Shown: positions 1 to 24,951, counted from the first letter of the stretch. The stretch: 24,951 bases of DNA from a virus (IMGVR_UViG_3300010052_000209:1-24951), one strand, 5' to 3'. Made by a program: numbers and translations. Notes: generated by a model not told the origin, from the letters alone.

Positions 1-642
1 TCATGCCGCGCCGCGCAGGATGCGGCGGGCCTGGAACGGCGGAATGATGGCGGTGATGTGGGCCGCCCAGCGCAGCCGCGCGTCGTGCCGCATGGGGGCG
101 GCGATGCTCTCCAGATCGTAGAGCCCCGGGCGCGCGCCGCGCAGCAGGCGCTTGACCAGCACCTCGTCGGTTTCGAGCTCGACCACGACCACGTGCCCGA
201 GCATGTCCGGGGAGGGCGCGCTGCGCTGGTGCTCGAAGTAGATGATCGCCCCGTCGTCGGCGAAGCCGCGCATGGAATGGCCCACGACCTTCAGCGCCCG
301 GGCCTGGTCGGAGCCGCCGGGCGGGATCGGCACCAACTCGGCAGGGTCGTGGCCGAGAGCGAACAGCACGGTGCCATCGGGGTTGGCTCCCACCGAGCCG
401 ATGACCGGCACGAATCCTTCGATCGCAGGCGTCGCCGCGCCGGCGGCGTCGTAGAGCCATTCGGGGCTGACGCCGAACGCGACAGCATACTCCTTTGCCC
501 GGCGATACGAGAACGGGGCGTTGCCGTTTTCGTTGGACGCGTAGGTATTACGGCTCCAGCCGTATGCGTCCGCAGCTGACGCAGCGGTGTCATAGCCTCG
601 GTCCATACGGGCCTGTTTGAGCCTTTGTGCGCGGCCGTCCAT
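1..642 (-). CDS. CI/LexA-like repressor (XRE HTH + S24 peptidase domain)
   Basis: N-terminal HTH (RLKQARMDRG...TYASNENG); C-terminal S24 motifs VVGHSM (Ser) and VLVKRL (Lys). Start placed at ATG 642 (MDGRAQRLK). Divergent from the operon at 708. Confidence 0.88.
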   Translation of the reverse strand: MDGRAQRLKQARMDRGYDTAASAADAYGWSRNTYASNENGNAPFSYRRAKEYAVAFGVSPEWLYDAAGAATPAIEGFVPVIGSVGANPDGTVLFALGHDPAELVPIPPGGSDQARALKVVGHSMRGFADDGAIIYFEHQRSAPSPDMLGHVVVVELETDEVLVKRLLRGARPGLYDLESIAAPMRHDARLRWAAHITAIIPPFQARRILRGAA

Positions 643-647
643 GGGAC

Positions 648-698
648 TGTAGATAACCTGCAGAGAAAGGTTGCGCAACGAGAAGTAGGTTTCCTACA
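648..698. promoter_or_regulatory. Putative repressor operators, consensus TGTAGG-N3-CCTACA (648-662 and 684-698)
   Basis: Perfect inverted repeat GTAGGtttCCTAC at 685-697 and a degenerate copy GTAGAtaaCCTGC at 649-661 in the divergent intergenic region; palindrome GTTGCGCAAC (670-679) lies between them. Confidence 0.6.
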
Positions 699-707
699 TT
701 CTAGTTC

Positions 708-950
708 ATGGATACGCAAACGCACCACACCCACTCGACCTACGCGGCGCTCCGCTACGGAGGCGCGTCCCAGGCGCGGGCTCAGGCCGAACTGGCCATC
801 CCGCCCGACCAGGCCCGGCAAATGGAGGCGATCTTCCACGTGCCGCGCCCCGGCAAGCAGCTGGACCGCATGCGCCCGCGGTTCGCCCGGCACGGCGAGC
901 ACGTGGCCGCGGTACGCGCGACCGGGGGCTATCCGGTGCTCGCGCGATGA
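708..950 (+). CDS. Small hypothetical protein in the Cro position
   Basis: 80 aa ORF divergent from the repressor, coupled to the next ORF by ATGA overlap at 947-950. Confidence 0.65.
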   Translation: MDTQTHHTHSTYAALRYGGASQARAQAELAIPPDQARQMEAIFHVPRPGKQLDRMRPRFARHGEHVAAVRATGGYPVLAR

Positions 951-1144
951 GAGGCGCCGAGGATGCGGCCGCGGTGGTCGCGGGGGCGCTCAGCCGGCGC
1001 GGCCCGGGGGAGCGGGGGCGGTTCCTGCGCGAACTGCTGGCGCACACGGCGGCAGGTCTGGTGGTGATCGAGGGCGAGGCTGAGGCCTCGGAGGCCGTCT
1101 ACCGACTGGCCGACGCGGTGGTGGCGCGGGGGCTGCGGGCATGA
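947..1144 (+). CDS. Small hypothetical protein
   Basis: 65 aa helical ORF with ATGA overlaps at both ends. Confidence 0.7.
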   Translation: MRGAEDAAAVVAGALSRRGPGERGRFLRELLAHTAAGLVVIEGEAEASEAVYRLADAVVARGLRA

Positions 1145-1710
1145 GGCCAAACCAGCGGAGGGATCCGGCCCGCGAAGCACGCGACCGGCTGCTGCGGCTG
1201 GAACGACGTGCGAAGGCGCAGGCTGAGGCGGCGGCGGTGACCGCGGGCGTGGCGGAGACGGTGGCGCTGGCGCGGGCGCGCGGGGAGGCGATCGTCGACG
1301 GTGGCGCGCGGAAAGCCTATCGTCGACAGACCGGCCTGGACTGGCTGGTGGCCAAGGGGCGCATCGACGCGCGGGCCAAGGCGGTGGGTGAGCGCTATGG
1401 CCAGGCCTACCGGCGCGTGAAGTTGGAAGCGGCGATCCCCTCGACGCTGGACACGCGGGTGCGCGGGCCGTTCGTGGCGCCGTCGATCGAGACGGTGCTG
1501 GCGCACGCGGAGGGCACCGAACTGGCGCGGCGGCGACTGGCGGAGTTCAGGCGCGGGCTCAGCCAGCAGCCGGACCTGGTGGCGGCGTGCGATCTTGTCT
1601 GCGGCGAGGAGAAGACGCCGCGCGAGGCGTCGGAGGGCGAGCGCGAGGCCGGCCGGCTGGAGGCGATCCTCAAGGTGGCGTTGGACATTCTCGTGGCTGG
1701 CGCACGCTAG
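1141..1710 (+). CDS. DUF6456/GafZ(GafA)-like late activator or Q-like antiterminator
   Basis: Motifs TGLDWL..KGRI...AVGERY...Y, ARRRL, DLVCGEE and LKVALDIL resemble DUF6456 proteins as I recall them; located directly upstream of a late promoter, like lambda Q. Confidence 0.65.
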   Translation: MRPNQRRDPAREARDRLLRLERRAKAQAEAAAVTAGVAETVALARARGEAIVDGGARKAYRRQTGLDWLVAKGRIDARAKAVGERYGQAYRRVKLEAAIPSTLDTRVRGPFVAPSIETVLAHAEGTELARRRLAEFRRGLSQQPDLVAACDLVCGEEKTPREASEGEREAGRLEAILKVALDILVAGAR

Positions 1711-1712: not shown

Positions 1713-1765
1713 TGTTCCTTATTTGTTCTTGACTTTCGCGCGCGAATTTGAGAGAGTTCAGTTAG
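1713..1765 (+). promoter_or_regulatory. 53-bp promoter cassette copy 1: LexA box (1714-1728), -35 TTGACT (1729-1734), palindrome TTCGCGCGCGAA, weak -10
   Basis: tgttccttatttgttcttgactttcgcgcgcgaatttgagagagttcagttag; 48/53 identical to copies 2 and 3; GTTC-N7-GTTC is the alphaproteobacterial SOS box. Confidence 0.85.
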
Positions 1766-1886
1766 TCGCGAAGAGTGTGCCCAGCGGGCGCGACCTTCGC
1801 GGACGGGCGCGCCAGTGGAGTGAGGCGAGAGGCCGAGAGGCCGAGAGGCCTTGGCCGCCAGCCAGCCTGTAGGTGATGGCCTGAGG

Positions 1887-2404: not shown

Positions 2405-2914
2405 ATGGTGGAGAAGGCGACCGGGGGGCCGCGGAAGGTCCCAGCGGAGCGGGCGCCGAGGGCGTCCCAACCGACGAAGGGCGTGTGTTTCAGCGCCGCG
2501 GTGGCGCGACGGATCTGTGCGCGGCTGGCGGAGGGCGAGCCGTGGTCGAAGATCTGCAAGACCAGGGGAATGCCCGCCTATTCGACGCTGTACTCGTGGC
2601 AGAAGCAGCAGCCTGGGTTCGCGGAGCAGGTGGCGCAGGCGCGGCAGCAGGGCGCGGACTACTGCGCCGACCGGGCGCTGGAGGTGGCCGAGCGCACGAC
2701 CAAGGAGACGATCCAGCAGGACCGCCTGTTCGTGAGCACCCTGATGAAGCGGGCGGCCCTGATCGCACCGCAGACCTGGGGCGGGAAGGGTGGCGGCGCC
2801 AAGGACAAGCCAGCGAAGGTGGAGGTGGTCTTCCGCGTCCGCCACTTCGAGCGGGTGGTCGGGCCGGACGGCAAGGCGTTCGTCCGCGAGATCGAGCCGG
2901 AGGGCGAGGCTTGA
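2405..2914 (+). CDS. Terminase small subunit
   Basis: HTH-type ICARLAEGEPWSKICKTRGMPAYSTLYSW typical of Sf6-like TerS; GAGGA RBS; overlaps TerL start. Confidence 0.85.
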   Translation: MVEKATGGPRKVPAERAPRASQPTKGVCFSAAVARRICARLAEGEPWSKICKTRGMPAYSTLYSWQKQQPGFAEQVAQARQQGADYCADRALEVAERTTKETIQQDRLFVSTLMKRAALIAPQTWGGKGGGAKDKPAKVEVVFRVRHFERVVGPDGKAFVREIEPEGEA

Positions 2915-4314
2915 GCGCGGCGAAATCCAAGGCGAAGTCCAAGACGGGGACGAAGGCCGGCGCGAGCGCGCCCGAGGTCGTCGCCGAGCCCATGCACAAG
3001 CTGCCGCTTGAGTGGCGGCCGCGGCCTTACCAGGTGGACCTGTGGGAGGCGCTGCTGGGCGGTGTGCGGCGGGCCGACGTGGTGGCGCATCGCCGGTGGG
3101 GCAAGGACGAGGTGGCGTTGCACTGGGCGGCCTGGGCGGCGTGGCAGCGGCCCGGGAGCTATTGGCATTTGCTGCCGGCGATGTCGCAGGGACGCAAGGC
3201 GATCTGGGATGCGGTGAACCCGCACACCGGCCGGCGGCGCATCGAGGAGGCTTTTCCGGACGTCATGCGGCCGACGTTCAATGAGAGCGAGATGCAGGTC
3301 GTTCTGGGCAACGGCTCGACCTGGCAGGTGTTGGGCTCGGACAATTACGACGGCCTGGTGGGCGCCTCGACGGCCGGGGTGGTGATGTCGGAGTGGGCGC
3401 TGGCGAAACCAGAGGCCTGGGCGCACATCCGGCCGATCCTGCTGGAGAACGACGGCTGGGCGCTGTTCCTGTGGACGCCCCGGGGGCGCAACCACGCGGC
3501 GCGGGCCTTCGAGAGCCGGAAGGGCGATCCGGAGTGGTTCTGCCTGAAGTCGCCGGCCACGGAGACCGACGTGTTCACGCCCGAGCAGCTGGCGCGGGAG
3601 AAGCGCGAGCTGATCGCCGAACTGGGCTCGGAGGAGGAGGGCGTGGCGCGGTTCGCGAGCGAGTACCTGGTGGACTTCGATGCGGCGGCTCCCGGCAGCT
3701 ACTACGCCAGTCTCCTGGGCGAGGCGGAGCGTGCGGGGCGCATCGGGCGCGTGCCGGTGGATCCGGCGTTGCCGGTCGACACCGCCTGGGACCTGGGCAT
3801 CGACGACTATACGGCGGTCTGGTTCTTCCAGCAGGCCGGGCGCGAGGTGCGGGTGGTCGACTATTTCGAGACCAGCGGGGAGGGCCTGCCGGCCATGGTT
3901 CGCCGCGCGATCGGCGAGCGGCCCTATCTGTGGGGGACGCACCACCTGCCGCACGACGTGATGGTGCGGGAGCTGGCGAGCGGGCGATCGCGATACGAGA
4001 CGTTGCAGTCGCTGGGGCTGACCCGCATCAGCGTCGGGACGGCGACGGATCCCGAGGAGCGGGTGAACGCCGCGCGCCTGATGATCCCCACCTGCTGGTT
4101 CGACGCCGAGCGTTGCGCCGCCGGGCTGGAGCGGTTGCGGGCCTATCGCAAGCGGTGGAACCGGGCGACGCACAGCTATGGCGGGCCGCTGCACGACCAG
4201 GCCAGCCATGGCGCTGATGCGTTCGGGGAGTTCGCGCTGAACCGCAGGGGGGCGACGACGGCGCGTGAGCCCGGCCGGCGGGCGGCGCACGGCGCGCTTT
4301 CGTGGATGAGCTGA
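2911..4314 (+). CDS. Terminase large subunit
   Basis: PRPYQ, Walker A VAHRRWGKD, Walker B VVMSEW, TPRGRN, nuclease motifs AWDLGIDD, LPHD, SHGADAF. Start TTG 2911 (TTGA overlap) or ATG 2992. Confidence 0.93.
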   Translation: MSAAKSKAKSKTGTKAGASAPEVVAEPMHKLPLEWRPRPYQVDLWEALLGGVRRADVVAHRRWGKDEVALHWAAWAAWQRPGSYWHLLPAMSQGRKAIWDAVNPHTGRRRIEEAFPDVMRPTFNESEMQVVLGNGSTWQVLGSDNYDGLVGASTAGVVMSEWALAKPEAWAHIRPILLENDGWALFLWTPRGRNHAARAFESRKGDPEWFCLKSPATETDVFTPEQLAREKRELIAELGSEEEGVARFASEYLVDFDAAAPGSYYASLLGEAERAGRIGRVPVDPALPVDTAWDLGIDDYTAVWFFQQAGREVRVVDYFETSGEGLPAMVRRAIGERPYLWGTHHLPHDVMVRELASGRSRYETLQSLGLTRISVGTATDPEERVNAARLMIPTCWFDAERCAAGLERLRAYRKRWNRATHSYGGPLHDQASHGADAFGEFALNRRGATTAREPGRRAAHGALSWMS

Positions 4315-4586
4315 GGCGGCGGACGTTAATCGTTCTTCCTTAAGCGCCGTTAAGGCCGTCGGGCCGAGCATGGCATCGTCGGGGGACGCGTTGGCGGCAG
4401 GAGGCCGCGAATGCTGGATGCCGTTCGTCATCTGCTGCACATGATCGAGGATCGCCCGTTCGAGAGCATTGCGGCGCTGATCGCCACGGTGCTGTACCTG
4501 CGCCTGATGATGTCGGGCCCGCGCTACTACTGAGACTCATCCGGCAAGCGGCGCCACAAACGGCGTGGATGTGCGTTTCGGCTGGC

Positions 4587-5056
4587 ATGAGCATCGACAA
4601 AGCCTTTGCCAGCTTCGCCAACAAGACGGCGAAGGTTACCGGCAGCCCTTGGACCTTCGGGGTGTGCTTGCTGCTGGTGATCCTGTGGGGCGGGAGCGGG
4701 CCGGTGTTCGGCTTCTCCGAGACGTGGCAGCTGGTGATCAACACCGGGACCACGATCATCACCTTCCTCATGGTGTTCCTGATCCAGAACACCCAGAACC
4801 GCGACGCCGAGGCGATGCAGGCGAAGCTGGACGACCTGATCCTCACGTCGGCGGCGGCGGAGAACGACTTCGTCGGCATCGAGCGGATGACCGAGAAGGA
4901 GCTCCAGGCGTTGCACGAGCGATGCGTCGAGCGGGCGAAGGCGCACGAGGAGCTGCACGCCAAGGTGCGGGACGAACTCGAGACCCGCGCGGCCAAGCGG
5001 CGGAAGCCTGCCGCGCGCAAGGCGCCGGCCCGCAAGAGCCCGGCGCGGAAGGCCGC

Positions 5057-5060
<4 letters not shown>
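4587..5060 (+). CDS. Low-affinity iron permease family (Fet4-like) membrane protein
   Basis: Signature WQLVINTGTTIITFLMVFLIQNTQNRD..AMQAKLDDLI; Lys/Ala-rich tail. Confidence 0.88.
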
Positions 5061-7153
<2,093 letters not shown>

Positions 7154-7363
7154 GGCCGTTGGGACCGCGGCATGCCGGGTCTCGCGGTGGGGTACGGTCA
7201 AGCGGGGCCTCCTGTTCAGGCGCGCGCCCAGGAAGCCGCATGCGGGTGACCGCCGCCCTAAGCTTGGCTGCGGCAAATCGACGTGACAGGGGCCGGGGCG
7301 CGCTCGACGGGCGGCGCCGATTGTCGCAGGGTCTGCGAACACACCGGCCAAGGAGCGACGACG

Positions 7364-7789
7364 ATGATCCGCAAGGCGAACGCAGTCTGGCAGGGCACGG
7401 GGCGCGATGGGACGGGCGCGCTGAGCTCTCAGTCCGGCGTGCTGAAGGAGACCCCGTACAGCTTCAAGACCCGGTTCGAGGACAGTCCGGGGACGAACCC
7501 CGAGGAACTGCTGGCTGCGGCGCACGCCGGCTGCTTCACGATGGCCCTGGCCTTCGCGATCCAGCGGGAAGGCTTCACGCCGCAGGAACTGTCGACCGAG
7601 GCGGCGGTGTCGCTGGACCAGGACGGCGCGGGTTTCAAGATCACGCGCTCGGCGCTGACGCTGCGGGCCAACGTGCCGGGGCTGAGCGAGGCGAAGTTCC
7701 GGGAGCTGGCCGAGGCGGCGGAGAAGACCTGCCCTGTGTCGCGCGTGCTGAACGCGGAGATCACGCTGGACGCGCTGTTGGAAGGGTAG
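7364..7789 (+). CDS. osmC: OsmC family peroxiredoxin
   Basis: MIRKANAVWQG, YSFKTRFE, GTNPEELLAAAHAGCF, CPVS; AGGAG RBS. Confidence 0.93.
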   Translation: MIRKANAVWQGTGRDGTGALSSQSGVLKETPYSFKTRFEDSPGTNPEELLAAAHAGCFTMALAFAIQREGFTPQELSTEAAVSLDQDGAGFKITRSALTLRANVPGLSEAKFRELAEAAEKTCPVSRVLNAEITLDALLEG

Positions 7790-7805: not shown

Positions 7806-7858
7806 TGTTCTTGATTTGTTCTTGACATCCGCGCGCGAATTTGAGAGAGTTCAGTCAG
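7806..7858 (+). promoter_or_regulatory. 53-bp promoter cassette copy 2 (LexA box 7807-7821, TTGACA 7822-7827)
   Basis: tgttcttgatttgttcttgacatccgcgcgcgaatttgagagagttcagtcag. Confidence 0.85.
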
Positions 7859-7919
7859 GGTCGACAACTGCGCTCCGGATGTCATCGGTCAGCCCGATGC
7901 GCCAAAGCGCCGAAGGTGA

Positions 7920-7964
7920 GTTCTTGAGTTGTTCTTGATTGCGCCGAGGCGCCCGGGGTAGCGT
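7920..7964 (+). promoter_or_regulatory. LexA box (7920-7934) with -35 TTGATT and -10 TAGCGT upstream of a membrane gene
   Basis: GTTCttgagttGTTC directly followed by TTGATT-N18-TAGCGT. Confidence 0.65.
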
Positions 7965-7996
7965 CGGTCCCGCGCCACCGGGCTAGGGGCAACATC

Positions 7997-8431
7997 TTGA
8001 GAAGGCCGATTTTACGGGCTGCCGTGGCCACGATCCTTTTCGCGGGTGGAGCGCTTCATTCTCTCTACGAGCTTTGGAGCGGGCTTCGCTTGCTAGAGCT
8101 TTGGGGGCCAGGTGCGTTGCCTCTGTTCCTGCTGGGAGTCGTGATGTGGGCCCTTCCGGCGGGGCTGGTCGCCTCGTTCCTGTTCTGGAGATCGGCGGCA
8201 AAGTCGCGAGGATGGTGCGGCTTATTCTTGAGAGGCGGCGCGGGGATGTGTGGGCTCCTGGGCGCGGCCTTCCTGGGCTTCATGATCTGGAATTGGTCCT
8301 CCACTGAGCAGGCCGTGGAGTGGGACGACATCGTGAGCTTGCTTGGGGCGCCCGCTCTGCTGCTGGGCGCTTGGCTGCTGTCGGCGCCCCTTAGAAGCGG
8401 CAGCGGGCATGCTCACGAACACTCGTCGTAG
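7997..8431 (+). CDS. Hypothetical 4-TM membrane protein
   Basis: Four hydrophobic segments; TTG start after AGGGG RBS; flanked by cassette copies 2 and 3. Confidence 0.7.
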   Translation: MRRPILRAAVATILFAGGALHSLYELWSGLRLLELWGPGALPLFLLGVVMWALPAGLVASFLFWRSAAKSRGWCGLFLRGGAGMCGLLGAAFLGFMIWNWSSTEQAVEWDDIVSLLGAPALLLGAWLLSAPLRSGSGHAHEHSS

Positions 8432-8453
8432 AGGCGTTCTCGCCGCCTGTTGA

Positions 8454-8506
8454 TGTTCGTGATTTGTTCTTGACATTCGCGCGCGAATTTGCGAGAGTTC
8501 AGTCAG
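8454..8506 (+). promoter_or_regulatory. 53-bp promoter cassette copy 3 (LexA box 8455-8469, TTGACA 8470-8475), upstream of portal
   Basis: tgttcgtgatttgttcttgacattcgcgcgcgaatttgcgagagttcagtcag; 50/53 identical to copy 2. Confidence 0.85.
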
Positions 8507-8650
8507 CGTTGAGGACTACGCCTGAAGCGCCGCGGATGCGGGGCTGAGGCGCGAGAGACGCCTTCCAATCTTTTGTCGATGCGGCCTTTGCGGGCCGCCT
8601 CCCACCCGCCGGGCTCGCTCGCGCGGGCCTTAACCCATGGGGCCAAGCCT

Positions 8651-11262: not shown

Positions 11263-11621
11263 CCCGCTCTGGGCGGTTGATTGAGCGCCCGCGCCAGCAG
11301 CAGGTAGAACCCCAGCAGTGGGATGCCGATCAGAAACACCATGAACGGCAACAGGAACATGAGGCCCATCGCGGCGATGTCCGAGGACTGCATCTCCCGA
11401 TTCACCACCCAACCCAGATAGATGGGCCACGCGAGCGGAGCGAGGATGATCGCCAGGTGCAGCGGCAGCGGGCCACGCGCCCGTAGCGCGGTGATCATCC
11501 ACCAGACCGACGCCAAGACGGAGGCCGAAAGGGTGGCAAGAGCCATGGCGTGGTCACCCAGCGCCACCGTCAGGCCCACGGCGGCGATATAGGACAGTCC
11601 CGGAAGCAGATAGATGCGCAT
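11259..11621 (-). CDS. Hypothetical 4-TM membrane protein (candidate immunity)
   Basis: Very hydrophobic 120 aa; convergent with ORF 10576, sharing a CTAG stop overlap. Confidence 0.7.
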   Translation of the reverse strand: MRIYLLPGLSYIAAVGLTVALGDHAMALATLSASVLASVWWMITALRARGPLPLHLAIILAPLAWPIYLGWVVNREMQSSDIAAMGLMFLLPFMVFLIGIPLLGFYLLLARALNQPPRAG

Positions 11622-15918: not shown

Positions 15919-16545
15919 ATGGCGATCACGACCTACGCGCAGCTGCAGGCTGCCGCGGCGAACTGGCTCGTGCGTGCGGACCTGACGGCGCGCATCCCTG
16001 AATTCATCACCCTCGCTGAAGCGCGGCTGAACCGCGTGCTGCGGACGCGCCTGGCCGAGACGGAGGTCGCGCTCACCGCGACCATCGGCGGCCGCTCGAT
16101 CCCCTTGCCGATGGGCTTCACGGAGCCTCTAAGGCTCTGGATCGAGCGGAACGGCGAACGGGTGGAACTTCCGTTCATCGAGACCACGCTGATGGGCGCA
16201 TCCTCGTTGCGGGGCGAACCGCAGGCCTGGACCGTCGATGGCGCGTCGCTGCGTTTCGATCGGCCTTGCGATGAAGCCTATGGCGTCGTGCTGCGGATGC
16301 TGACGGCGTTCGCGCTGTCGGACGCCGTCCCGACCAATGGACTGCTGACCCAGGCGCCCGATGTCTACCTGTTTGCGACCCTCAGCGAGGCTGGACCCTT
16401 CCTGCGCGATGCCGACCTGGCCGGCGTCTACGAGGGCAAGCTGACCCGCGCCATTGAGGAACTGAACGGCAAGGACGCCCGCAGCCGCGCGCCGCGCACG
16501 CTGGGCACCGAGCTGGCCGAACTGATGCTGGAGTGCCGATCGTGA
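15919..16545 (+). CDS. Head-tail adaptor / tail tubular protein A-like
   Basis: MAITTYAQLQAAAANWLVRADLTARIPEFITLAEARLNR...TNGLLTQAPDVYLFATL, typical of podovirus adaptors following the coat gene. Confidence 0.78.
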   Translation: MAITTYAQLQAAAANWLVRADLTARIPEFITLAEARLNRVLRTRLAETEVALTATIGGRSIPLPMGFTEPLRLWIERNGERVELPFIETTLMGASSLRGEPQAWTVDGASLRFDRPCDEAYGVVLRMLTAFALSDAVPTNGLLTQAPDVYLFATLSEAGPFLRDADLAGVYEGKLTRAIEELNGKDARSRAPRTLGTELAELMLECRS

Positions 16546-16790
16546 GCCTCGCGCCCATTGGACCAGGCGCACCCGAGGGCTTGCGCGGCGTTCTGAAGTC
16601 CTTCCACGACGCGCTGGCGGGCGTGATCGCGCCTGGCGCGCCGACGCCGCTGTTCGCGGTTGCCGCCGCGCGGTTGCCGCCTGCGGCGAGCCATCCCCAG
16701 ACCCTGGTGCTCGTCACCGACCTCAACATCCTCGCCCATTCGGACGGGGCCCATTGGATCCGCCAAGACACGGGAGCCGTGATCGTCTGA
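16533..16790 (+). CDS. Hypothetical virion protein
   Basis: 85 aa with SDGAHW motif, coupled overlaps on both sides. Confidence 0.65.
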   Translation: MPIVSLAPIGPGAPEGLRGVLKSFHDALAGVIAPGAPTPLFAVAAARLPPAASHPQTLVLVTDLNILAHSDGAHWIRQDTGAVIV

Positions 16791-17380
16791 TGCCTTCATC
16801 CTGGACGCCATCGCTGCGCTTCGAGCAGCAGTTCACCGGCGAGAACATCAACACCTGGGGCGACCGGCTGAACTCGGTGCTGGGCCGCGCCGACTATGCC
16901 GTCGCCGGCTGGCTGACGAAGCCGCTGACCGGCCACGTCGCCCTGACGTCGGCCAACGACGCGGACGACGAGGCGCGGGCCGCGACGCTGAAGTTCACTG
17001 GTGGGGCAGGGCCGTTCACCGTCACGCTGCCGGCGGTGAGCAAGACCTATCTGGTCTGGAACGCGTGCGCCGGGCCGGTGACGCTGACCACCGGCGCAGG
17101 GCCGTCGCTCACGATCGACCCGGGCGACATCGTCTGGGCCGCCTCGGATGGCGCGGCGGTGACCACGCCGGGCTACGGCGGCGCCTCGATCAAGGACTGG
17201 GTGTCGAGCGTGGCGTGGTCCTACAACGCCGGCGCCCTGCCGGCCCAGACCGGCAATGCCGGCAAATTCGTTCGCACCGACGGCGTCAACGCGAGCTGGC
17301 AAGCCCTCTCGACCGCCGACCTCACCGACTACGCGACTGCCGTGAAGGGCCTCGCCCTGGCGTTCGCCGTCGCCCTCTAG
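16790..17380 (+). CDS. Putative tail fiber anchor / virion protein
   Basis: QFTGENINTWGDRLN and LPAQTGNAGKFVRTDG motifs typical of tail-fiber-related proteins; TGATG coupling. Confidence 0.7.
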   Translation: MPSSWTPSLRFEQQFTGENINTWGDRLNSVLGRADYAVAGWLTKPLTGHVALTSANDADDEARAATLKFTGGAGPFTVTLPAVSKTYLVWNACAGPVTLTTGAGPSLTIDPGDIVWAASDGAAVTTPGYGGASIKDWVSSVAWSYNAGALPAQTGNAGKFVRTDGVNASWQALSTADLTDYATAVKGLALAFAVAL

Positions 17381-17391: not shown

Positions 17392-17802
17392 ATGCCCGTC
17401 ACCCCGAACAGCATCGTCACGCCGCAGACGCCGAAATCGGCGGTGGCGAGTGCCGCCATCGCACAGGCGACGTTCCCGCCTACCACGACGCCAGCCAATA
17501 CGGTGCTACTGGTCACCGCCGGCGCCAACGGCGGTCGACTGACCCGCTTGCAGGGTTGCCCGCAGGAAACCACCACCGCCAACAACCTACAACTCTACCG
17601 CTCGCTCGATAGCGGTACGAGCAAGCACTACGTGAACGGTGTCGCCCTCACTGCGACCGTAGGGGCGACCGCGCCCGGGGGTGTCGCCGACTTCGGATAC
17701 TCGGACGACAACCCCCTGATCTTAAATGCAAACGAGCGGCTGTATGTCGCAGTCGGCATAGCGAAGTCGGTGACCTTTGTTGCCGAATGGGCGGACTACT
17801 GA
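17392..17802 (+). CDS. Hypothetical beta-rich tail-associated protein
   Basis: AGGAG RBS; LLVTAGANGGRL...PLILNANERLYVA...EWADY. Confidence 0.7.
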   Translation: MPVTPNSIVTPQTPKSAVASAAIAQATFPPTTTPANTVLLVTAGANGGRLTRLQGCPQETTTANNLQLYRSLDSGTSKHYVNGVALTATVGATAPGGVADFGYSDDNPLILNANERLYVAVGIAKSVTFVAEWADY

Positions 17803-18551
17803 TGGGCGGGCGGCTGCGCGGCTTGGTTGCGCAGGCGATGGATGGACGAAAGCGCATCGTCAGAAATCGTGTCGTCTACGCCCAAGCGTACACTAGCGGT
17901 GCCGGATCGACGCCGGCGCAAGCCGTCACCGTGCTTGCCTCCACCTATCTCGTGGGGGCTGGCGCGAACGGGGGCGGCGCCGGCGCCGGCGCCGGCGCGG
18001 ACGGCGGCGGCGGCGGCGGGGCGGCATACCAAGAGTTCATCCTCGCGCCCGGACAAGTGATCAACTACGTCATCGGGGTCGGAGCGCCGGGCTCAGTGCA
18101 GAACCCTGGAGTCGGCGGCGACACCGTTGTGACAGGCCCTACCGGTAGGACAGTTCGCGCTCAGGGAGGCCAAGGGCGTATCGGCGGTCGTGGGAGTGGC
18201 GGCAAGTTCAACTACAAGGGCGGCGACGGAGGTACCTTTGCGGGAATTGGTGTGGGTGCGGGCGGCGCCCCCGGGGCCGCAGAAGGAGGAGATGGCCTGA
18301 ATGGCGGGGGCGGGAGTTCCGTTTCCGGCGGTGGCGGCGGGGGTGGTGCCAACCCGGGAGTCCCATTGGGCACTTTGACAGCCTTTGCGCCCTCCTTCGG
18401 CCGACAAGGAACTGGCAGCGGCACTGTCTTTCCGGCCGCGCCCTACGGGGGAGGTGGTGGAGCGTCCAGTGACGGAGCTGGTGGTGCCAACAAGGGCGGT
18501 GCGGGTGCGGATGGTGTCGTCGTCGTTGTGATGATCGATGTAGATAGGTGA
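17802..18551 (+). CDS. Glycine-rich tail fiber-associated protein
   Basis: VGAGANGGG...GGGGG, GAGADGVVVV glycine-rich domain; TGATG coupling. Confidence 0.75.
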   Translation: MGGRLRGLVAQAMDGRKRIVRNRVVYAQAYTSGAGSTPAQAVTVLASTYLVGAGANGGGAGAGAGADGGGGGGAAYQEFILAPGQVINYVIGVGAPGSVQNPGVGGDTVVTGPTGRTVRAQGGQGRIGGRGSGGKFNYKGGDGGTFAGIGVGAGGAPGAAEGGDGLNGGGGSSVSGGGGGGGANPGVPLGTLTAFAPSFGRQGTGSGTVFPAAPYGGGGGASSDGAGGANKGGAGADGVVVVVMIDVDR

Positions 18552-18916
18552 TCGAAGCGGAACAGTCGTTTGGAACGGCAATAGATAGACTTGGCCCCGC
18601 CCACGCCCCATCGCCAATCTGCGGTCTTCGGCAAGATGACATATGCTCGCTTGCCCATTGCGTCTGCCAAAAGCGCGATTGAAGTGTCGGCGGAGACTAC
18701 TGCGTCAAGATTTTCTATGCTTTAGTGAGCGTTTTCGAAATCCAACGCGCCCGTATCTTTTGGGCGCTGGCTCATGCCCAATGCGCATAGCCTTTTCGCA
18801 AGATCATCTGGCAAGCGAAATCCATTCCGATCGCTGCCAGAAGGCATGATCCCGATTCCGCTGCGAGAGTATGAACCAGAAAGTTGGGATTTAGAGGGTA
18901 GTTCTGCCGTCAACAT
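18552..18916 (-). pseudogene. Remnant of a (TPR-)glycosyltransferase family 9-like gene
   Basis: Single reading frame ...GIGIMPSG...PKDTGALDFENAH*SIENLDAVVSADTSIALLADAMGKRAYVILPKTADWRWG...RLFRF matches the GT9-type C-terminus (DLVISVDT.VAHLAGALGKP...DWRW...RLFRQ); in-frame TAA at 18722-18724. Confidence 0.7.
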
Positions 18917-19345
18917 TCGAAAAAATACAATAAATAATTATTTATATAATAGATCTATTGATGTTTATAAATATAATTATATTGATTAAATCTCATAATT
19001 TATGAAAGGTCGATATGGGGGCGGGGGTGATTTCAATTCCATTTGGTGAAATATATTTGTATATGGCGAGCGAATTGAATTTGATATCCGAACCTTTGCT
19101 CGGTTAGTACAATCAATTGTCCTATTTTTTATCTACCCGTTCCGGGGATTAAAAATTTTGGCTGCAGAGGTCCGCCCGGGATTTTGCGTCGAAACTCGTA
19201 ATATTTCCATCCTTTAAAGAATTTCTATATATTTAATAGAACGATGCAAATGCATGTTATAGCTTTACAATATCAGATGATATTCAAATGTGCGCCGAAG
19301 AAGTTATTCAATTTGCTGCATGTCACCATCGGCGACTAGAATAAT
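18915..19345. other. AT-rich island without a long ORF
   Basis: Runs such as aaaaatacaataaataattatttatataat within otherwise very GC-rich DNA. Confidence 0.8.
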
Positions 19346-19704
19346 TGCGCGTTCGCCGTAGTCTTTGGGCTACATCCACCTAGCCTAACACCGTACTAGC
19401 GTTTTAGGCCACATCTTGTGGCTAGGTTCGGGCCCCCCCGATGGCGCGGATCGCGCGTCTATTTACTTCTAGACGCACTCCTGCCGCAGTCAGCTTTCCG
19501 GCGACAAGGCCCGGACCGTCAGGCGCCCACACAGCCGGTACGTTCGCCACTGGACCTCGTTCCGCGAGCTCTGCCGGCTGCCGCTGAAGCGACGGCACGA
19601 CGCTGACATGCCTGGGATCCGGGCAGACTCCAACTCCACCTCGTGACTTTGCACGCGCCGTCGCATCGGCGGGTGGTCATTTCGCACATTCAAAGAGAGG
19701 CCAG

Positions 19705-20019
19705 ATGGAAAAGGCATTCATGCCCGTGGACAACGCCACGGTGATGGTCGGCGTATCGACGTCGTGGATGGCGGGAGCGATCAAGGGGCGGCCCAGCGGG
19801 CCGTTCCAGCTTCGGCTGTACAATGCGCTTGCGAGCGCGGTGTTCTACCGGGTCGGCGACTCCAGTGTGCAGGCCACCAGCGCCGACGTTCCGCTGCCGC
19901 CGGGCGCGGTGGAGATCATCACGGTCCGCAATGCCGACGCGCGGCCGGACACCCACATCGCGTTCGTGGCCGCGTCCGGGAGCGGCTCCGTGTACGCCTC
20001 GACCGGCAATGGGCTCTAG
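19705..20019 (+). CDS. Hypothetical small virion/tail protein
   Basis: GAGAGG RBS; beta-rich 104 aa; 2 bp before the next gene. Confidence 0.7.
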   Translation: MEKAFMPVDNATVMVGVSTSWMAGAIKGRPSGPFQLRLYNALASAVFYRVGDSSVQATSADVPLPPGAVEIITVRNADARPDTHIAFVAASGSGSVYASTGNGL

Positions 20020-20021
20020 GG

Positions 20022-21692
20022 ATGGTGCTGCATGTCGGGACGAGGGGGCCTGGGCACCTCTCGCGCACGGCGGCCGGCGCTCCCGGGGAGGTCTTCGGGA
20101 CCTCGGCGGCACGCTACAGCGTCATGGGGACCGGCCTCCGAACGCCGGTGCACATGGGCAGTGAGGCCGGCGCGTCGATGCAGACGAACGGCAATGGCAC
20201 GACGGACTATCTGTACCAGGTGACACGCCAGGCCTTCGGCTCGCCTGATTACGTCACCACGGATCATCTGTTCGGCTTCTGCAACTTCTCGCACGGCACG
20301 TCGGGCCCTGAGGCCAGCGGCGGCTGCGACATCACGATCGACGCCTTCAAGGTCTATGTGAACGGCGCCTGGGTTTCGTCTACCGACGTGCCGAAGGTCG
20401 TGCCTGCAGGGGCCGGGGTTCTGCTGAGCGGGTTCTCAGGGCTGAGCATTCCGGCCAACGCGGTGGTGCATTGGATCTGCAAGTTTCACTACAGCGCCGG
20501 CGCCGCGAAGATCCCGGTGTTGTCGGCCAGTGCGTTCTGGAATCCCGGCGGTGTCTCGGACGCCGCGCGGGGGTTCACGACCGCGGGCGGCTACACGACC
20601 GAAATTCCAAGCGATGGTCCGGGCACGGTGCCGACCTGGGCGAACGGGACCGGCGGCCGATCCTGGGGGCCGTCGATGTGCTTCGGAAAGGGCGGGGATG
20701 GTCGGCCTGCCGTCGTCATCGTCGGCGATAGCATCGGCTATGGCGTCGCCGGCGATACCCAGGTGGCCTGTTGGACGGCCCGGCGCGAGTACGGAATGGT
20801 GGGAGTTGGCCTGGACAGCAATGTCGGGGCCAAACGCCTAGGCTATCTGAACCTCAGCGTCCCGGGACAGAGCCCGATCGATGCCGTTGGGGGATGGCGC
20901 TACCGTCCGCGCTGGGAGCGGAAGCTGGACCTCGTGAAGCAGGTGACGCTGCTACAAGGCAAGGCGCCGTTCGACATCATCCTGAGTGAGCACGGCGAGA
21001 ACAGTTGCTCGGCAGCGAAGACGCTGGTGTCCGGCATGCCTGCCTACTACGCGACCTTGCAGGCGGAGTGGCCTGGGCTGCCGATCTACCAGCACGAGCT
21101 CCTCGCGCGCTGCAAGTCGACGGACCAGTTCCGAAGCTTCGCGGGGCAGACGCTGGATCGGAACAGTGACGGCTCGCAGGATACGAACTCCCTGCAGTTT
21201 GCGCTGGGGCACGCCTACAACGGCGGCGTCAACATGGGCGACAAGTGGCTGTTCCAGGCCGCGTTGCAGCCCGGTGGCGCTATCCGTGACGCCGGTTGGA
21301 TCGCTGGCACGATCCCGACATGGCGATATGGCAGCTATGACACGGGGGATGGCCGCGACCGGTTGGCCCTCCGCACATTTGCGACGACGACGACAGGACC
21401 CTACAACGGCGGCACGGCGAGGATGCCGCTGGCGGCTGCGGCCACGCCGGGCATGCACCTTTGCATGGATGGCCAGCCGAACGGCTATGTCGGTGTCTCG
21501 CGTGTCGCGGGGACAGGCGGTCTCGAGGCTGAGATCGTGCCGAACAGCTTCTCGCCCGGCAGTGTCGCCACGGGCGCGAACGTCTGGGAGATCCCGCACG
21601 ATGCGGGTGGTCCGCACCCCAGCGGCCTGATGCATCGCGACGTCTACTCCGCTGCTTTCGTCGACTGGAAGATCGCCCAGGGCTGGGTGTGA
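20022..21692 (+). CDS. SGNH/GDSL hydrolase-domain tail spike-like protein
   Basis: Block I VVIVGDSIGYG, block II NLSVPG, block III EHGEN, block V DAGGPHPS. Confidence 0.78.
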   Translation: MVLHVGTRGPGHLSRTAAGAPGEVFGTSAARYSVMGTGLRTPVHMGSEAGASMQTNGNGTTDYLYQVTRQAFGSPDYVTTDHLFGFCNFSHGTSGPEASGGCDITIDAFKVYVNGAWVSSTDVPKVVPAGAGVLLSGFSGLSIPANAVVHWICKFHYSAGAAKIPVLSASAFWNPGGVSDAARGFTTAGGYTTEIPSDGPGTVPTWANGTGGRSWGPSMCFGKGGDGRPAVVIVGDSIGYGVAGDTQVACWTARREYGMVGVGLDSNVGAKRLGYLNLSVPGQSPIDAVGGWRYRPRWERKLDLVKQVTLLQGKAPFDIILSEHGENSCSAAKTLVSGMPAYYATLQAEWPGLPIYQHELLARCKSTDQFRSFAGQTLDRNSDGSQDTNSLQFALGHAYNGGVNMGDKWLFQAALQPGGAIRDAGWIAGTIPTWRYGSYDTGDGRDRLALRTFATTTTGPYNGGTARMPLAAAATPGMHLCMDGQPNGYVGVSRVAGTGGLEAEIVPNSFSPGSVATGANVWEIPHDAGGPHPSGLMHRDVYSAAFVDWKIAQGWV

Positions 21693-21743: not shown

Positions 21744-23276
21744 ATGAAAATTCCATTCGAGTTGCCGCCCGGGCTGAGCGGCGACGATACGACCTATGCC
21801 GCCACCGGCCGCTGGGCGGACGGCTCCAACGTGCGCTTCCGGCTGGGGCGGGCCGAGACCATCGGTGGGTGGGAGCGGCTGATGCGGGAGTCCCTGAGCG
21901 GCGTGTGCCGTGCGGTGTTTCCGTGGACCGACAACAGGGGCGTGCTGAACATCGGCTTCGGCACGCACTCGAAGCTGCAACTGTGGCAGGGCGGGGCGCT
22001 GTTCGATATCACGCCGACGGCGGGCTTCACGGCCGGTGCGATCGATGGGGCAGGCTCGGCGGGCTACGGCACTGGCGCCTACAACGTCGGCGGCTACGGT
22101 CAGCCCTCGGAGACGGACTATTTTCCGCTCACCTGGTCGTTCGGGGCGTGGGGGCAGCAGCTGCTGGCCAGCCCGCGCAACCAGACGATCTTCGCCTGGA
22201 CCAACAACACCGGCACGCCGGCCGCCGCCCTGGCAAATGCGCCGGCGCGGGTCACCCATATGCTGGTGGCGCCGCTGAACGGCGGCTACCAGGTCTTCGC
22301 GCTGGGTTGCAACGAGGAGGTCTCCGGGACCTTCAATCCGCTCTGTATCCGCCATTCCTCGATCCGAGAGAACACGGTCTGGAGCACCGCTGCGAGCGGT
22401 TCGACAGCGCGGGAATACATCCTGACCGGCGGCGGCCGGATCGTGGCCGGGCGGATGTGCGGGCCGTGCATGCTGGTGTGGACCGGTGATGCGCTGTTCC
22501 TGGGGACGTTCGTCGGGGCGCTGAACCAGCCGTGGCGCTTCGATCGCGTCGGCCGCAACTGCGGGCTGATTGGGCCGAATGCCGCGGTGATCGTGGGGCA
22601 GACGGCGTATTGGGTGAGCCCCGACCGTCAGTTCTATCGCTATGTCGTGGGCGGCGAACCCGAACCGCTGCCTTGCCCCGTCCGGCGGGATTTCGCTGAG
22701 GAATTGGCGGCGAGCCAGGGTGACAAGGTCGTGGCCTCGTCGAACGCGGAATTCTCCGAGATCCGCTTCGACTACCCCGACCGGCGCGACGGCTACGAGA
22801 ACAGCCGCTACCTCGCACTGGCGGTGGCCGGACCGGATGCAGGGGCGTGGCACCGCGGCGTGATGGCGAGGACGGCGTTCGTCGACGCAGGGCCTTCGGC
22901 CTATCCGATTGGCGCGACTGCGGACGGGGCGGTCTTCCTCCATGAGCGAGGGCGTTCGGCCGACGGCGGCAGCTTCCGCTGGTTCATCGAGACGGCGGAC
23001 GCCTACCTCGACCCCGAGACGACGCTGCTGGTGCGCGGCCTATGGCCTGACTTCAAGGATCAGGTGGGCCCCGTGACAGTGGATGTCGCGGCGCGAATGC
23101 ATCCCCAGGCGGCCGACGTGGCGATGGCCAGCGCGGCCATGGCGCCCGGCGCCGCACGTGCCGACCTGCTCACGAGCGGTCGGCTCTTCCGCGTGCGTTT
23201 CTCAGGCGAGAGCGCGCCGACGGGCTGCCGCATCGGGACGCCGACCTTCGACGTCGCCCAGACCGGCCAGCTCTGA
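21744..23276 (+). CDS. Tail hub / packaged-DNA stabilization protein (gp10, tail tubular B-like)
   Basis: WADGSNVRF...IGGWE, propeller-like repeats, NCGLIGPNA; size and position typical. Confidence 0.75.
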   Translation: MKIPFELPPGLSGDDTTYAATGRWADGSNVRFRLGRAETIGGWERLMRESLSGVCRAVFPWTDNRGVLNIGFGTHSKLQLWQGGALFDITPTAGFTAGAIDGAGSAGYGTGAYNVGGYGQPSETDYFPLTWSFGAWGQQLLASPRNQTIFAWTNNTGTPAAALANAPARVTHMLVAPLNGGYQVFALGCNEEVSGTFNPLCIRHSSIRENTVWSTAASGSTAREYILTGGGRIVAGRMCGPCMLVWTGDALFLGTFVGALNQPWRFDRVGRNCGLIGPNAAVIVGQTAYWVSPDRQFYRYVVGGEPEPLPCPVRRDFAEELAASQGDKVVASSNAEFSEIRFDYPDRRDGYENSRYLALAVAGPDAGAWHRGVMARTAFVDAGPSAYPIGATADGAVFLHERGRSADGGSFRWFIETADAYLDPETTLLVRGLWPDFKDQVGPVTVDVAARMHPQAADVAMASAAMAPGAARADLLTSGRLFRVRFSGESAPTGCRIGTPTFDVAQTGQL

Positions 23277-23323
23277 AGCTTCCCCAAAAACAAGGACTTC
23301 GGTCCCAGCAAAGGATCAGGTGA

Positions 23324-24199
23324 ATGGTGTTCGGACTTACGGGCAGCGCCAACAAGAGCAAGACGACCACGAGCAGCACCGGCTCGTTCAATACGACGAC
23401 GACACCGGTCGTGCCGGACTGGGCGACGTCGCCGGTTCAGACCGCGACCAACCGCGTCGGCAGCCTGATGAATCTGGATCCGAACGCGCTGGTCGCGCCG
23501 GCCAATCCGCTTCAGCAGCAGGCCGCCGCGACGGCCGGTGGTCTATCCGCGGATACGTCGTGGCTCAATCCGTACATGCAGGCGGACACCCCCTTCGCCT
23601 CGGGCGGCAAGGCCTATGACTGGGTGGGGCGCTATATGAACCCCTACCTGAACCAGGTGGTCGACACGACAGCCGCCGATCTGGACGCCAATGCCGGGCA
23701 GGTTCGCGCGCAGCAGGCGCTCAACCTCGCGGGTTCGGGCGCGTTCGGCGGTTCGGGGGCGGCGCTGACGCAGAGCATGACCGAGGGCGAACTGGCGCGG
23801 GCTCGAGGCACCACGCTGGGGGGTCTGCAGTCGCAGGGCTACCAGATGGCGCTGCAGGCCGCGGCGGGCGACGCCGATCGCGCGACGCAGGCGCGCATCG
23901 CCAATGCACAGATGGCGTTGCAGGACCGCGCGCAGAAGGTGGGCCTCCAGTTCAACTCGGACGCCAACCAGCGCGCCAACGTTGCGGCACAGGCTGAGGT
24001 GGGCGGCGCGTTGCGTGGCGTCGATCAGGAACAGCGCCAGGCGCCCATCACCAACAACCAGCAGATCGTGGCGATGCTTCAGGGTCTGCCGCTGGGCCTC
24101 TTCGCGGGGCAGACGCAGGCGGGCACCAACACCGAGACGGGCACGTCGAAGACCAAGGGCTTCAGCGTCGGCGCCAGCTTCAGCGACGCGAAGGCGTGA
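23324..24199 (+). CDS. Putative DNA ejection / internal virion protein
   Basis: Ala/Gln/Gly/Thr-rich; YMNPYLNQVVD and GAFGGS motifs seen in podovirus pilot proteins. Confidence 0.65.
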   Translation: MVFGLTGSANKSKTTTSSTGSFNTTTTPVVPDWATSPVQTATNRVGSLMNLDPNALVAPANPLQQQAAATAGGLSADTSWLNPYMQADTPFASGGKAYDWVGRYMNPYLNQVVDTTAADLDANAGQVRAQQALNLAGSGAFGGSGAALTQSMTEGELARARGTTLGGLQSQGYQMALQAAAGDADRATQARIANAQMALQDRAQKVGLQFNSDANQRANVAAQAEVGGALRGVDQEQRQAPITNNQQIVAMLQGLPLGLFAGQTQAGTNTETGTSKTKGFSVGASFSDAKA

Positions 24200-24204
24200 C
24201 AGCG

Positions 24205-24477
24205 ATGGTGACACAGTCCGAACGCTTGGCGGCGTTGGAGCAGCGCCTGGGGGATCACGAAGCCCGATGCGAGGAGCGGTTGGCTGAGATCCGAGCGACG
24301 GCGGCGTCGACTCTTCAAGCGGTCGAGGGGCTCAAGAGCCGCTCGTGGGGGATCGCCGCGGCGCTGCTGGCCTGGGCGCTGGCCCAGCTCTGGAGCGCGA
24401 ATGCGACCAAGCTTGAGCGGCTGGAAGCCGCGCGACCGGCTGCGGTGCAGGTCGCCTCGGCGCACGCCGAACACTGA
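24205..24477 (+). CDS. Holin-like protein (coiled coil + single TM)
   Basis: RLAALEQRLGDHEARCEER coiled coil then WGIAAALLAWALAQLW; upstream of the endolysin. Alternative start GTG 24196. Confidence 0.55.
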   Translation: MVTQSERLAALEQRLGDHEARCEERLAEIRATAASTLQAVEGLKSRSWGIAAALLAWALAQLWSANATKLERLEAARPAAVQVASAHAEH

Positions 24478-24501
24478 AAAAAAATTTCCCAGGGGTATGA
24501 A

Positions 24502-24951
24502 ATGACGACGAAACTCTCGGCGCATTTTGCGCTGGAAGAACTCGCGGCGACCCAGCATCGCGGCATCGACAATCGTCCGCCGCCCGAGGTCGTGGTGAGC
24601 CTGCGCGGTACGGCCGCGCGGATGGAAGAGGTCCGCCGGTTGCTTGGTGATCGGGTGATCACGGTCTCCAGTGGCTATCGTTCGCCGGCCTTGAATAGGG
24701 CGGTCGGCGGCGCTCGCGCGTCGGCCCATCTGACCGGCCATGCGGTGGACTTCAATTGCTACGGCTATGGCGTGCCCAAGGCCGTCTGCCGCGCCATCGC
24801 GAACTCAGAGATCGCGTTTGACCAGATCATCGAGGAGGGCTCGTGGACCCATATCTCCTTCGATCCGCAGATGCGCCGGCAGGTGCTGACCAGGACCTCG
24901 GGCGGCCGTTACGTGGTGGGCCTGGGCGAGCCGGAAGGGGTGGTGCGATGA
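24502..24951 (+). CDS. Peptidase M15 family endolysin
   Basis: LSAHFALEEL, SSGYRSPALNRAVGG...SAHLTGHAVD, FDQIIEE..WTHISF. Confidence 0.9.
   Translation: MTTKLSAHFALEELAATQHRGIDNRPPPEVVVSLRGTAARMEEVRRLLGDRVITVSSGYRSPALNRAVGGARASAHLTGHAVDFNCYGYGVPKAVCRAIANSEIAFDQIIEEGSWTHISFDPQMRRQVLTRTSGGRYVVGLGEPEGVVR

Follow-up and report, generated by a model that had tools for sequence, protein, structure and literature searches.

Is a cluster that keeps the head, tail and lysis genes of a phage, and has no replication genes, still a virus, or has it become a part of its host? The question is raised by IMGVR_UViG_3300010052_000209:1-24951, a virus-collection record of 24,951 nucleotides (nt) without flanks (the window, meaning the whole stretch analysed), whose chromosomal setting was read from relatives only. 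The window begins with a CI-like repressor gene on the minus strand, two small open reading frames (ORFs), a Q-like gene, the terminase subunit genes (TerS, TerL) and three host-like inserts, continues with P22-type portal, scaffold, coat, adaptor, tail genes and a gp10-like protein, and ends with one ejection-type protein, a holin-like ORF and an endolysin (Table 1). Frames are open for TerS, TerL, the P22 portal, scaffold, P22 coat, adaptor, gp10-like structural protein and M15 endolysin; the family scans covered 30 ORFs, and the names gp10, holin and cro are given by position. Domestication, in the sense of a fixed, non-replicating and selected element, is well supported. We see an even chance that the cluster is a domesticated P22-type phage relic working as a DNA-damage-induced particle of the gene transfer agent (GTA) kind, in which chromosomal DNA would be packaged in place and then passed on to related cells, and it appears likely from the genomes compared that such a particle is kept by hosts without the usual alphaproteobacterial GTA. 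The observations behind this are a fixed site, missing genes, open and conserved terminase, head, tail and lysis genes, and SOS boxes on late-type promoters.

Chromosomal site and inheritance of the cluster

A TerL scan of the species genomes gave 78 loci, 74 of them at 65-86% identity and titled Phenylobacterium or, more broadly, Caulobacteraceae, Alphaproteobacteria or Proteobacteria. In most of the 34 repressor-bearing loci the left flank reads nitroreductase-NUDIX-cysE-DUF3126-SRAP (cysE 19, DUF3126 19, SRAP 20), in 6 loci it is MFS-MarR, and the right flank consists of DUF2239, a tRNA-Thr(GGT) pointing at the element and murA-DUF2948-hisD. The right end is likewise tRNA-Thr-murA in G008, a genome of the family sample with a 59% identical coat. 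This tRNA-Thr is a live integration site, as 3' duplicates of 51, 46 and 25 nt are present in G002, G091 and G127; the elements bounded by these duplicates are separate ones, and in G002 the site carries a second prophage. No tRNA 3' duplicate was found at the cluster's left end, and the candidates for an att site there were rejected as 13-19-nt chance matches within the repressor gene. Four integrase queries on the relatives left the cluster itself unmatched and hit only separate elements, the phage record G013:C3 and a nearly emptied locus in G292 (matches in other elements: G002, G013:C3, G091, G172, G292). The repressor-to-Q distance is 411-825 nt in 60/60 rows, duplicate rows included, which leaves replication genes without room. 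In the window it measures 498 nt, in agreement with the roughly 500 bp and two tiny ORFs given in a first-pass annotation of this DNA, and neither integrase nor replication families were found among the scanned ORFs, as that annotation had also stated. It had named integrase, replication genes or att sites just outside the window as signs of an ordinary prophage; the relatives have housekeeping flanks at a fixed site. Judged by the criteria for GTA viriforms set out in Kogay et al. 2022 (PMC9662315), the relatives are fully endogenised (fixed flanks, no integrase of their own, no left att duplicate) and the particle proteins are of caudoviricete derivation.

Of 121 genomes of the genus Phenylobacterium, 59 have the coat (57 of them the close type), 73 have TerL and 111 have the repressor, the last count taking in some 57-67% paralogs from other contexts; TerL is kept in 54 of the 57 coat-positive genomes. 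Outside the family, a single coat query gave 0 matches in a sample of 400 class-wide Alphaproteobacteria genomes, the one positive of 401 being the centre genome itself. Coat and murA trees were compared for the 26 of 30 chosen genomes that had both genes full (22 ingroup). Of 23 splits, 10 occur in both trees, where shuffling gave a mean of 0.3 and at most 3; none conflict at 95% support, and five do at looser cut-offs. The Mantel test gave a rho of 0.57 for the whole set and of 0.30 (p 0.045, patristic) for the ingroup. This is the mostly vertical inheritance expected of a GTA viriform, with the reservations that the marker murA is linked and that there are coat exceptions. Among 9 sister pairs, 8 gave a coat dN/dS of 0.09-0.22 and the remaining pair 0.54, and the coat dN is about that of murA in sister pairs; pooled medians (0.13-0.86) are inflated by a GC3 of 86-93% and served for ranking only, which placed TerS as the fastest of the core genes. 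Internal stops, counted in the best segment only, were found in 0/109 coat, 0/90 TerL and 1/95 portal matches, and the TerL motifs HRRWGKD and AWDLG in 40/40 aligned rows. Thus the comparisons of trees and dN/dS that had been called for at first pass support vertical inheritance and purifying selection.

Only 2 of the 121 Phenylobacterium genomes have the GTA_TIM marker of the RcGTA type, and one of these two, G258, is coat-positive too. In the family the marker occurs in 103 of 251 genomes, namely in 0 of 31 coat-positive (three of which are distant coat matches) versus 103 of 220 others, an exclusion that fits replacement. Among the window ORFs we found neither the GTA_TIM megatron nor the long-tail families of the RcGTA type. 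ComEC was found in 5/5 hosts.

Reduction of the phage gene set and SOS control

The live phage kin are P22-like temperate podoviruses of Caulobacteraceae (records G745, G746, G747, G748 and G013:C3). G745, G746, G747 and G013:C3 have the same head-tail order, coats 64-71% identical, and in addition early and replication genes; an integrase was recognised in G013:C3 by PHROG and in G746-G748 by motif reading, and homologs of the adaptor and the three tail-region genes stand in the same order in G745-G747. Their ejection genes encode 303+666+569 amino acids (aa) in G745 and 303+620+679 aa in G747, and another of these phages has a set of 845+160+221+300+707 aa. In the cluster, 932-1953 nt separate the gp10-like gene from the lysis genes in 35/35 rows (duplicates again included), an interval that holds the first ejection gene only. 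The window's 291-aa ejection protein pairs with the 290-303-aa first ejection gene of G745-G747 and aligns with the first ejection protein of G013:C3, itself a match to the PHROG 4287 DNA ejection protein, at an HHalign probability of 96.7. The portal has 622-641 aa in 18 of 22 chromosomal-type rows versus 726-743 aa in three phages; among the remaining four, one has 653 aa, two are cut short and one is split. The losses of the large ejection genes and of the portal barrel are common to intact copies across genera. The first-pass description of an intact P22-type morphogenesis and lysis set thus holds in that the listed genes are all open, whereas by phage standards the set is incomplete because of the single ejection-type gene and the 625-aa portal. 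The P22 portal barrel offers binding sites to ejection proteins (PMC4992974), so the barrel loss and the ejection-gene loss would fit each other. A functional P22-like prophage has three ejection proteins, a full portal barrel, an integrase, an att pair and replication genes, none of which sets is complete here, and the element, as its genes read, cannot be an infecting phage because the large ejection proteins and the barrel are lost.

In G748, integrase- and primase-like genes (recognised by motif) occur alongside the Q-like gene, the 65-aa ORF, an SOS box, TerS, TerL and a portal of 667 aa, and on this gene content we take it for a missing link. In the portal and TerL trees the window groups with G298 and G011, the long-portal phages lying outside. 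L292-L293 (G284) and L302 (G335) are full prophages with a TerL 57-58% identical and a different head type; they show that a mosaic phage pool is the origin of the cluster's terminase and head.

Six exact GTTC-N7-GTTC boxes were counted in the window (1714, 7807, 7920, 8455, 11635 and 13360), one more than the five LexA boxes of the first-pass annotation, against a chance mean of 0.48 and a maximum of 3 in 100 shuffles. The motif is the Caulobacter LexA consensus (PMC12700426) and stands also upstream of recA in 3/3 host relatives. A 68-nt box-plus-TTGACA unit, present in repeated copies, accounts for three of the six; its box adjoins a TTGAC-type -35, and these late-promoter units are conserved and re-duplicated; a promoter scan of 600-2500 found no E. 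coli-type consensus promoter. Within eight loci there are 42 boxes in 215 kb versus 4 in 145 kb of flank. A box within 450 nt before the portal occurs in 31 of 65 distinct loci, the portal-side copy being missing from about half of them, and before the gp10-like gene in 0 of 57.

The Ser/Lys dyad motifs of the repressor are kept in 38/38 rows, and A-N stands at the position of the LexA/CI A-G cleavage site. The repressor was considered as a RogA ortholog on its equal length and domains, and this was rejected since its sequence ends differ from those given by the rogA primers (PMC9632790, Table S3). The model of the Q-like protein (pLDDT 87) was compared with 48,161 chains, where Q-engaged and AlpA-loaded complexes rank 2 and 3 with a Z of 6.4; superposition on Q/AlpA gave a root-mean-square deviation of 5.1-5.7 over 104-107 aligned residues, and Foldseek returned nothing at E 0.001. 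HHalign relates the Q-like gene to a homolog of the antiterminator GafZ (PMC11150451) with a probability of 24 and an E of 8e-4. That it is a true GafZ was rejected, DUF6456 being matched by only 1 of 49 members (E 0.001); in genomes, DUF6456 is above cut-off in 0/2 hosts and in 2/3 GTA-positive ones. The RogA and GafYZ/GafA regulators of the RcGTA type are hence not recognised here (repressor ends differ, Q-like protein only remotely similar), although the contrast with GafYZ drawn at first pass is weaker than claimed, as the Q-like protein is itself weakly similar to GafZ.

In the mechanism that we propose, DNA damage would take LexA off the late promoters, and the CI-like repressor would gate the Q/AlpA-like antiterminator, which would read through the inserts. 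TerS and TerL would package DNA of the unexcised chromosome into heads, starting at a pac-like site of the locus or, given the fast drift of TerS, more widely, and holin, endolysin and spanins would lyse the producer. Equipped with a single ejection protein and a truncated portal barrel, the particle would get at most to the periplasm of the recipient, where ComEC would finish the import as for RcGTA, whose DNA needs ComEC/ComF to leave the periplasm (PMC12378983). Leader-tagged toxin-like proteins may travel along, and uptake would be safe only in cells with the matching partner gene.

Cargo cassettes and competing explanations

The first-pass annotation had found host-like genes embedded in the cluster, which we confirmed as iron-permease family, hybrid histidine kinase and OsmC genes; these differ from locus to locus. 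It missed the toxin-like/partner cassettes at 10576-11621 and 12754-14326. Inserts of more than 500 nt are present in 69/109 portal-scaffold, 73/120 scaffold-coat and 32/119 coat-adaptor rows, and mostly pair a co-oriented domain gene with a cognate partner that is membrane-anchored and often has an SOS box to itself (11 of 12 family 5 partners). The domains seen are papain-like, DUF6973, Ntox44, lipase-like and glycine-zipper; a partner of membrane family 5 or 13 comes next after papain-like genes in 18 of 33 cases, and one of family 0 after DUF6973-cluster genes in 16 of 22. Short leaders recur on unrelated domains, one of them (leader B) with statistical significance: for its profile, trained on the DUF6973 cluster, the top non-training matches among 45,798 ORFs belong to the papain-like family (E 2e-5 to 1e-3), and the leader A profile gave a single weak cross-family match (E 0.1). 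No MuF domain was found in 90 cargo proteins or the window ORFs. With a shared N-terminus, a variable toxin-like C-terminus and an adjacent cognate partner, the cassettes have what reads as a polymorphic toxin-immunity architecture, in the MuF position without MuF. L306 (9699-13500) has two scaffold genes with a distinct toxin-like cassette behind each, and nine SOS boxes within 17 kb; the arrangement suggests that scaffold-anchored duplication may be how cassettes move. A resemblance to the scaffold C-terminus (window 12715-12745) is seen in some leader B variants (M/L-T-x-x-D-W); that leader B mimics a coat-binding helix is speculative.

A wider version of our reading, which we advance only tentatively and hold to be rather improbable, is that Caulobacteraceae without RcGTA tamed P22-type podoviruses, possibly repeatedly, into an SOS-induced particle by which host DNA and leader-tagged polymorphic toxins would both be brought to the periplasm. 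The lineages would possibly be Phenylobacterium, the G008 group, the G012 group and G013:C5, each time with integrase, replication genes, inner ejection proteins and portal barrel possibly dropped. Repeated domestication is left open by the last three, which form separate branches with phages between them.

Alternatively, the product may be a bacteriocin-like killing particle, with DNA as ballast and with envelope damage or toxin delivery to non-immune neighbours, as in PBSX or with MuF-like cargo. The insert counts of the portal-scaffold and scaffold-coat intervals, the strict cargo-partner pairing, the Ntox44 and lipase-like domains, the leader profile linking two families, partners whose membrane anchors fit envelope targets, and the hypervariable tail region all point in this direction; in that region, the window's esterase-like gene is matched in 2/56 other rows and its Gly-rich gene in 0/56. 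However, about 40% of the intervals are insert-free, so cargo is optional, a MuF domain is lacking, and partners mostly with an SOS box of their own are odd for standing immunity. The best Foldseek rows of cargo 1 (H-REV107 and TseH, E 0.08-0.12) are below significance, toxicity and capsid loading are predictions, and TerL is retained with the coat in the 54 of 57 genomes noted above. We consider a killing particle unlikely.

Several observations weigh against our preferred reading. The coat is missing from 62 of the 121 genus genomes, a figure to be read with care as completeness filters are not reported and absences in metagenome-assembled genomes are uncertain. The tree signal within the ingroup is weak, murA being linked, and on raw distances the ingroup Mantel test is not significant (p 0.13). 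In the coat tree the long-portal phages nest among the chromosomal coats, beside the window's, and because this disagrees with the portal and TerL trees, modules seem to have been exchanged with phages sometimes. Because the full phage G748 carries an SOS box before terS, the late-promoter box probably predates domestication and was duplicated later. The P22 channel is built by gp7 and gp20 in its outer/periplasmic part and by gp16 at the inner membrane; it stays incomplete with gp7 alone, and some DNA leaks when gp20 is lost (bioRxiv 10.64898/2026.09.03.749273), and by this analogy delivery via a single ejection protein is doubtful. The nearest named phages have genomes of 33.6-40.5 kb, so a normal-size head could hold the whole cluster locus of 19-36 kb. 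The exclusion of RcGTA-type genes amounts to one or few evolutionary events, not 31, and ComEC is common, as it is present in 10/14 controls too. At least 11 loci have an open TerL and have lost the head-tail block with differing end points, among them L001, the window's nearest TerL relative, and in G262, G311, G346 and G212 little is left beyond repressor-to-Q. Since many loci have deleted the block, the particle is dispensable or costly.

These deletions are the main support for a very old defective prophage in slow, patchy decay, in which the repressor (for immunity and silencing) and host genes are kept, phage recombination is occasional and no useful particle is made. The gradient from repressor to TerL to close-type coat (111, 73 and 57 of 121) would agree with it, as would portals split or shortened in G050, G109 and G138, a coat cut in G004, the nested phage coats, a tRNA-Thr site that still receives other elements, and a TerL dN/dS of 0.39 in headless loci versus 0.22 (p 0.02, confounded by distance). 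On the other hand, coat amino-acid change on a par with that of murA, the near absence of internal stops, the identical losses in intact copies across genera and the re-duplicated late-promoter units speak against decay, and we regard it, too, as improbable. The first-pass proposal of an independently domesticated particle under DNA-damage control accordingly stands as to fixed site, vertical descent, an SOS box equal to the host recA box and near-exclusiveness with the RcGTA-type marker; it is qualified by patchiness within the genus and repeated deletions, by coat alleles exchanged with live phages, and by the box before terS in a full temperate relative.

A helper-dependent element, with its own heads and packaging and with the large ejection proteins or in-place replication supplied by a co-induced related phage, is much less probable. 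Extra-cytoplasmic complementation is known between P22 mutants and related prophages are present in some hosts (G002, G284, G335, G013), yet a homolog of the second phage ejection protein was found in 0/5 near-complete hosts (a fast-evolving family, searched with no positive control), and most hosts have no such prophage at the locus. An ordinary inducible prophage with integrase and replication genes beyond the window, to which the flankless record and the retained lambdoid order would lend themselves, is hardly credible, being already contradicted in relatives by the short repressor-Q interval, the housekeeping flanks, integrases confined to separate elements and the missing left tRNA 3' duplicate. 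The domesticated, GTA-like particle remains our preferred reading, at the strength stated at the outset.

Variant loci deserve mention in their own right. L208 (G237) has many internal deletions (Q, TerS and TerL gone; portal, scaffold and coat shortened) with open tail and lysis genes. The headless loci L283, L285, L287, L290 and L291 keep the repressor, Q-like gene, TerS, an open TerL and spanin or lysin remnants; these may represent either a terminase-plus-lysis module that serves a use of its own or a stage of decay. The copy at G013:C5 389500-422000 (L193-L194), which is separate and SOS-boxed and groups as sister to phage G013:C3, has another TerL, an Ntox44 cassette and reduced ejection genes; it is a possible independent domestication. 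In a second cluster lineage (L179-L180 of G008, L183-L186) the Q-like gene replaces the repressor cassette and an inverted SOS box precedes the portal; in G050/G078 what we take, from its motif, to be a GcrA-like gene also stands in place of that cassette. The window stretch 18560-19400 is AT-rich (GC 44-46%) with a broken minus-strand frame, presumably the C-terminal part of a glycosyltransferase; in several relatives the slot is occupied by an intact glycosyltransferase gene of 540-556 aa.

Table 1. Features of the window, with position, strand and basis of the assignment or remark.
Feature	Position	Strand	Remark
Repressor	1-642	-	CI-like, 213 aa, helix-turn-helix (HTH) + S24 peptidase
Two operator-like palindromes, TGTA-N7-TACA type	647-663, 683-699		conserved in 16-locus alignment; putative operators
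80-aa ORF in cro position	708-950	+	position conserved; no family match
65-aa conserved ORF	947-1144	+	52%-identical homolog adjoins Q-like gene in full phage G748
Q/AlpA-like antiterminator candidate, remote GafZ-type	1141-1710	+	structure model and HHalign
Late-promoter unit copy 1: SOS box overlapping TTGAC-type -35	1713-1780	+	
Terminase small subunit, Sf6-like	2405-2914	+	family match; fastest-evolving core gene
Terminase large subunit	2911-4314	+	family match; ATPase and nuclease motifs conserved
Host-like inserts: iron-permease family (+), hybrid histidine kinase (5057-7153, -), OsmC (7364-7789, +)	4569-7789		
Late-promoter unit copies 2 (7806-7873) and 3 (8454-8521), SOS box 7920-7934	7806-8521	+	
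144-aa membrane ORF	7997-8431	+	between late-promoter unit copies 2 and 3
P22-type portal, 625 aa	8651-10528	+	C-terminus ~110 residues shorter than in phage relatives
Toxin-like cargo 1: leader + permuted papain-like domain	10576-11262	+	invariant His and Ser-Asn
Convergent membrane partner gene (11259-11621), own SOS box (11635-11649)	11259-11649	-	
Remnant of second copy of cargo 1	11686-11754	+	70% identical stretch
Head scaffolding protein	11945-12754	+	family match
Toxin-like cargo 2: leader + DUF6973	12754-13320	+	family match
SOS box (13360-13374), two paralogous membrane-anchored partner genes (13407-13856, 13847-14326)	13360-14326	+	
P22-type coat protein	14618-15808	+	family match
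Head-tail adaptor	15919-16545	+	family match
Three conserved tail-region genes	16542-16790, 16790-17380, 17392-17802	+	
Hypervariable tail/receptor region	17802-21692	+	Gly-rich ORF, AT-rich decayed stretch, 104-aa ORF, 556-aa esterase-like protein
gp10-like tail hub/nozzle	21744-23276	+	PHROG 3287 virion structural protein; name from position
Single ejection-type protein, 291 aa	23324-24199	+	HHalign to phage ejection protein
Holin-like ORF	24205-24477	+	putative, from position
M15 endolysin	24502-24951	+	family match

Place among known particles

RcGTA and CcGTA are described as endogenous head-tail clusters without replication genes and mostly vertical in descent (PMC9632790, PMC11150451, PMC9662315), and the likeness extends to a 213-aa HTH-S24 repressor and a Q-like antiterminator. 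In contrast to them, the cluster has a P22-type portal and coat, a short tail, a single locus including lysis, a non-RogA repressor with Ser/Lys motifs, direct SOS boxes and toxin-like cassettes, and nearly all its hosts are without GTA_TIM. FpGTA of Faecalibacterium prausnitzii is podovirus-like and of GTA type, near-fixed in its genus and lost in some strains; its own features are a Gram-positive host, two loci and packaged DNA shown to be 8.4-8.9 kb, and LexA has 0 occurrences in the main text of its paper (PMC12946183). With FpGTA, a podovirus-like GTA is already described, and the cluster itself is, as that account reads, a variant of the kind. We did not find the cluster in the literature searched, the supplements of GTA surveys, which could list it, being outside that search.

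The P22-like podoviruses of Caulobacteraceae share the head-tail order, and G748 more than that, and are set apart by early and replication genes, by at least three ejection genes and by portals of greater length. A parallel in a CI-like repressor with an antiterminator upstream of lysis is offered by AlpR/AlpA of Pseudomonas aeruginosa and phage Q, the modelled fold matching at a Z of only 6.4; the Alp system has, to our knowledge, no capsid genes. PBSX of Bacillus subtilis, which has killing activity, and BhGTA (VSH-1) are likewise defective phage elements that package host DNA, and differ in unrelated hosts and structural modules. BhGTA is mitomycin-inducible (PMC9662315). In the MuF polymorphic toxins of temperate phages, a toxin-like gene and its partner also stand just downstream of the portal, and loading into the head has been proposed (PMC5576092); the cluster differs by the missing MuF domain, short leaders, several slots and SOS-boxed partners.

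Only few independent GTA origins are known to us, and DNA repair is a possible reason for which GTAs are kept. The cluster is a candidate GTA replacement with SOS wiring, in the lineage that is sister to the model Caulobacter, and it comes with living phage ancestors and natural knock-outs in cultured species; Phenylobacterium deserti YIM 73061 (L042) is without the head-tail block, which Phenylobacterium kunshanense BUT-10 (L027) has intact. It makes testable the loss of inner ejection proteins as a step from podovirus to competence-dependent transfer particle, the refilling of GTA function after loss of the RcGTA type, and toxin loading into P22-type heads via short leaders. If podoviruses were indeed tamed into such particles together with their toxin cassettes, the result would be a GTA doubling as a kin-discriminating weapon.

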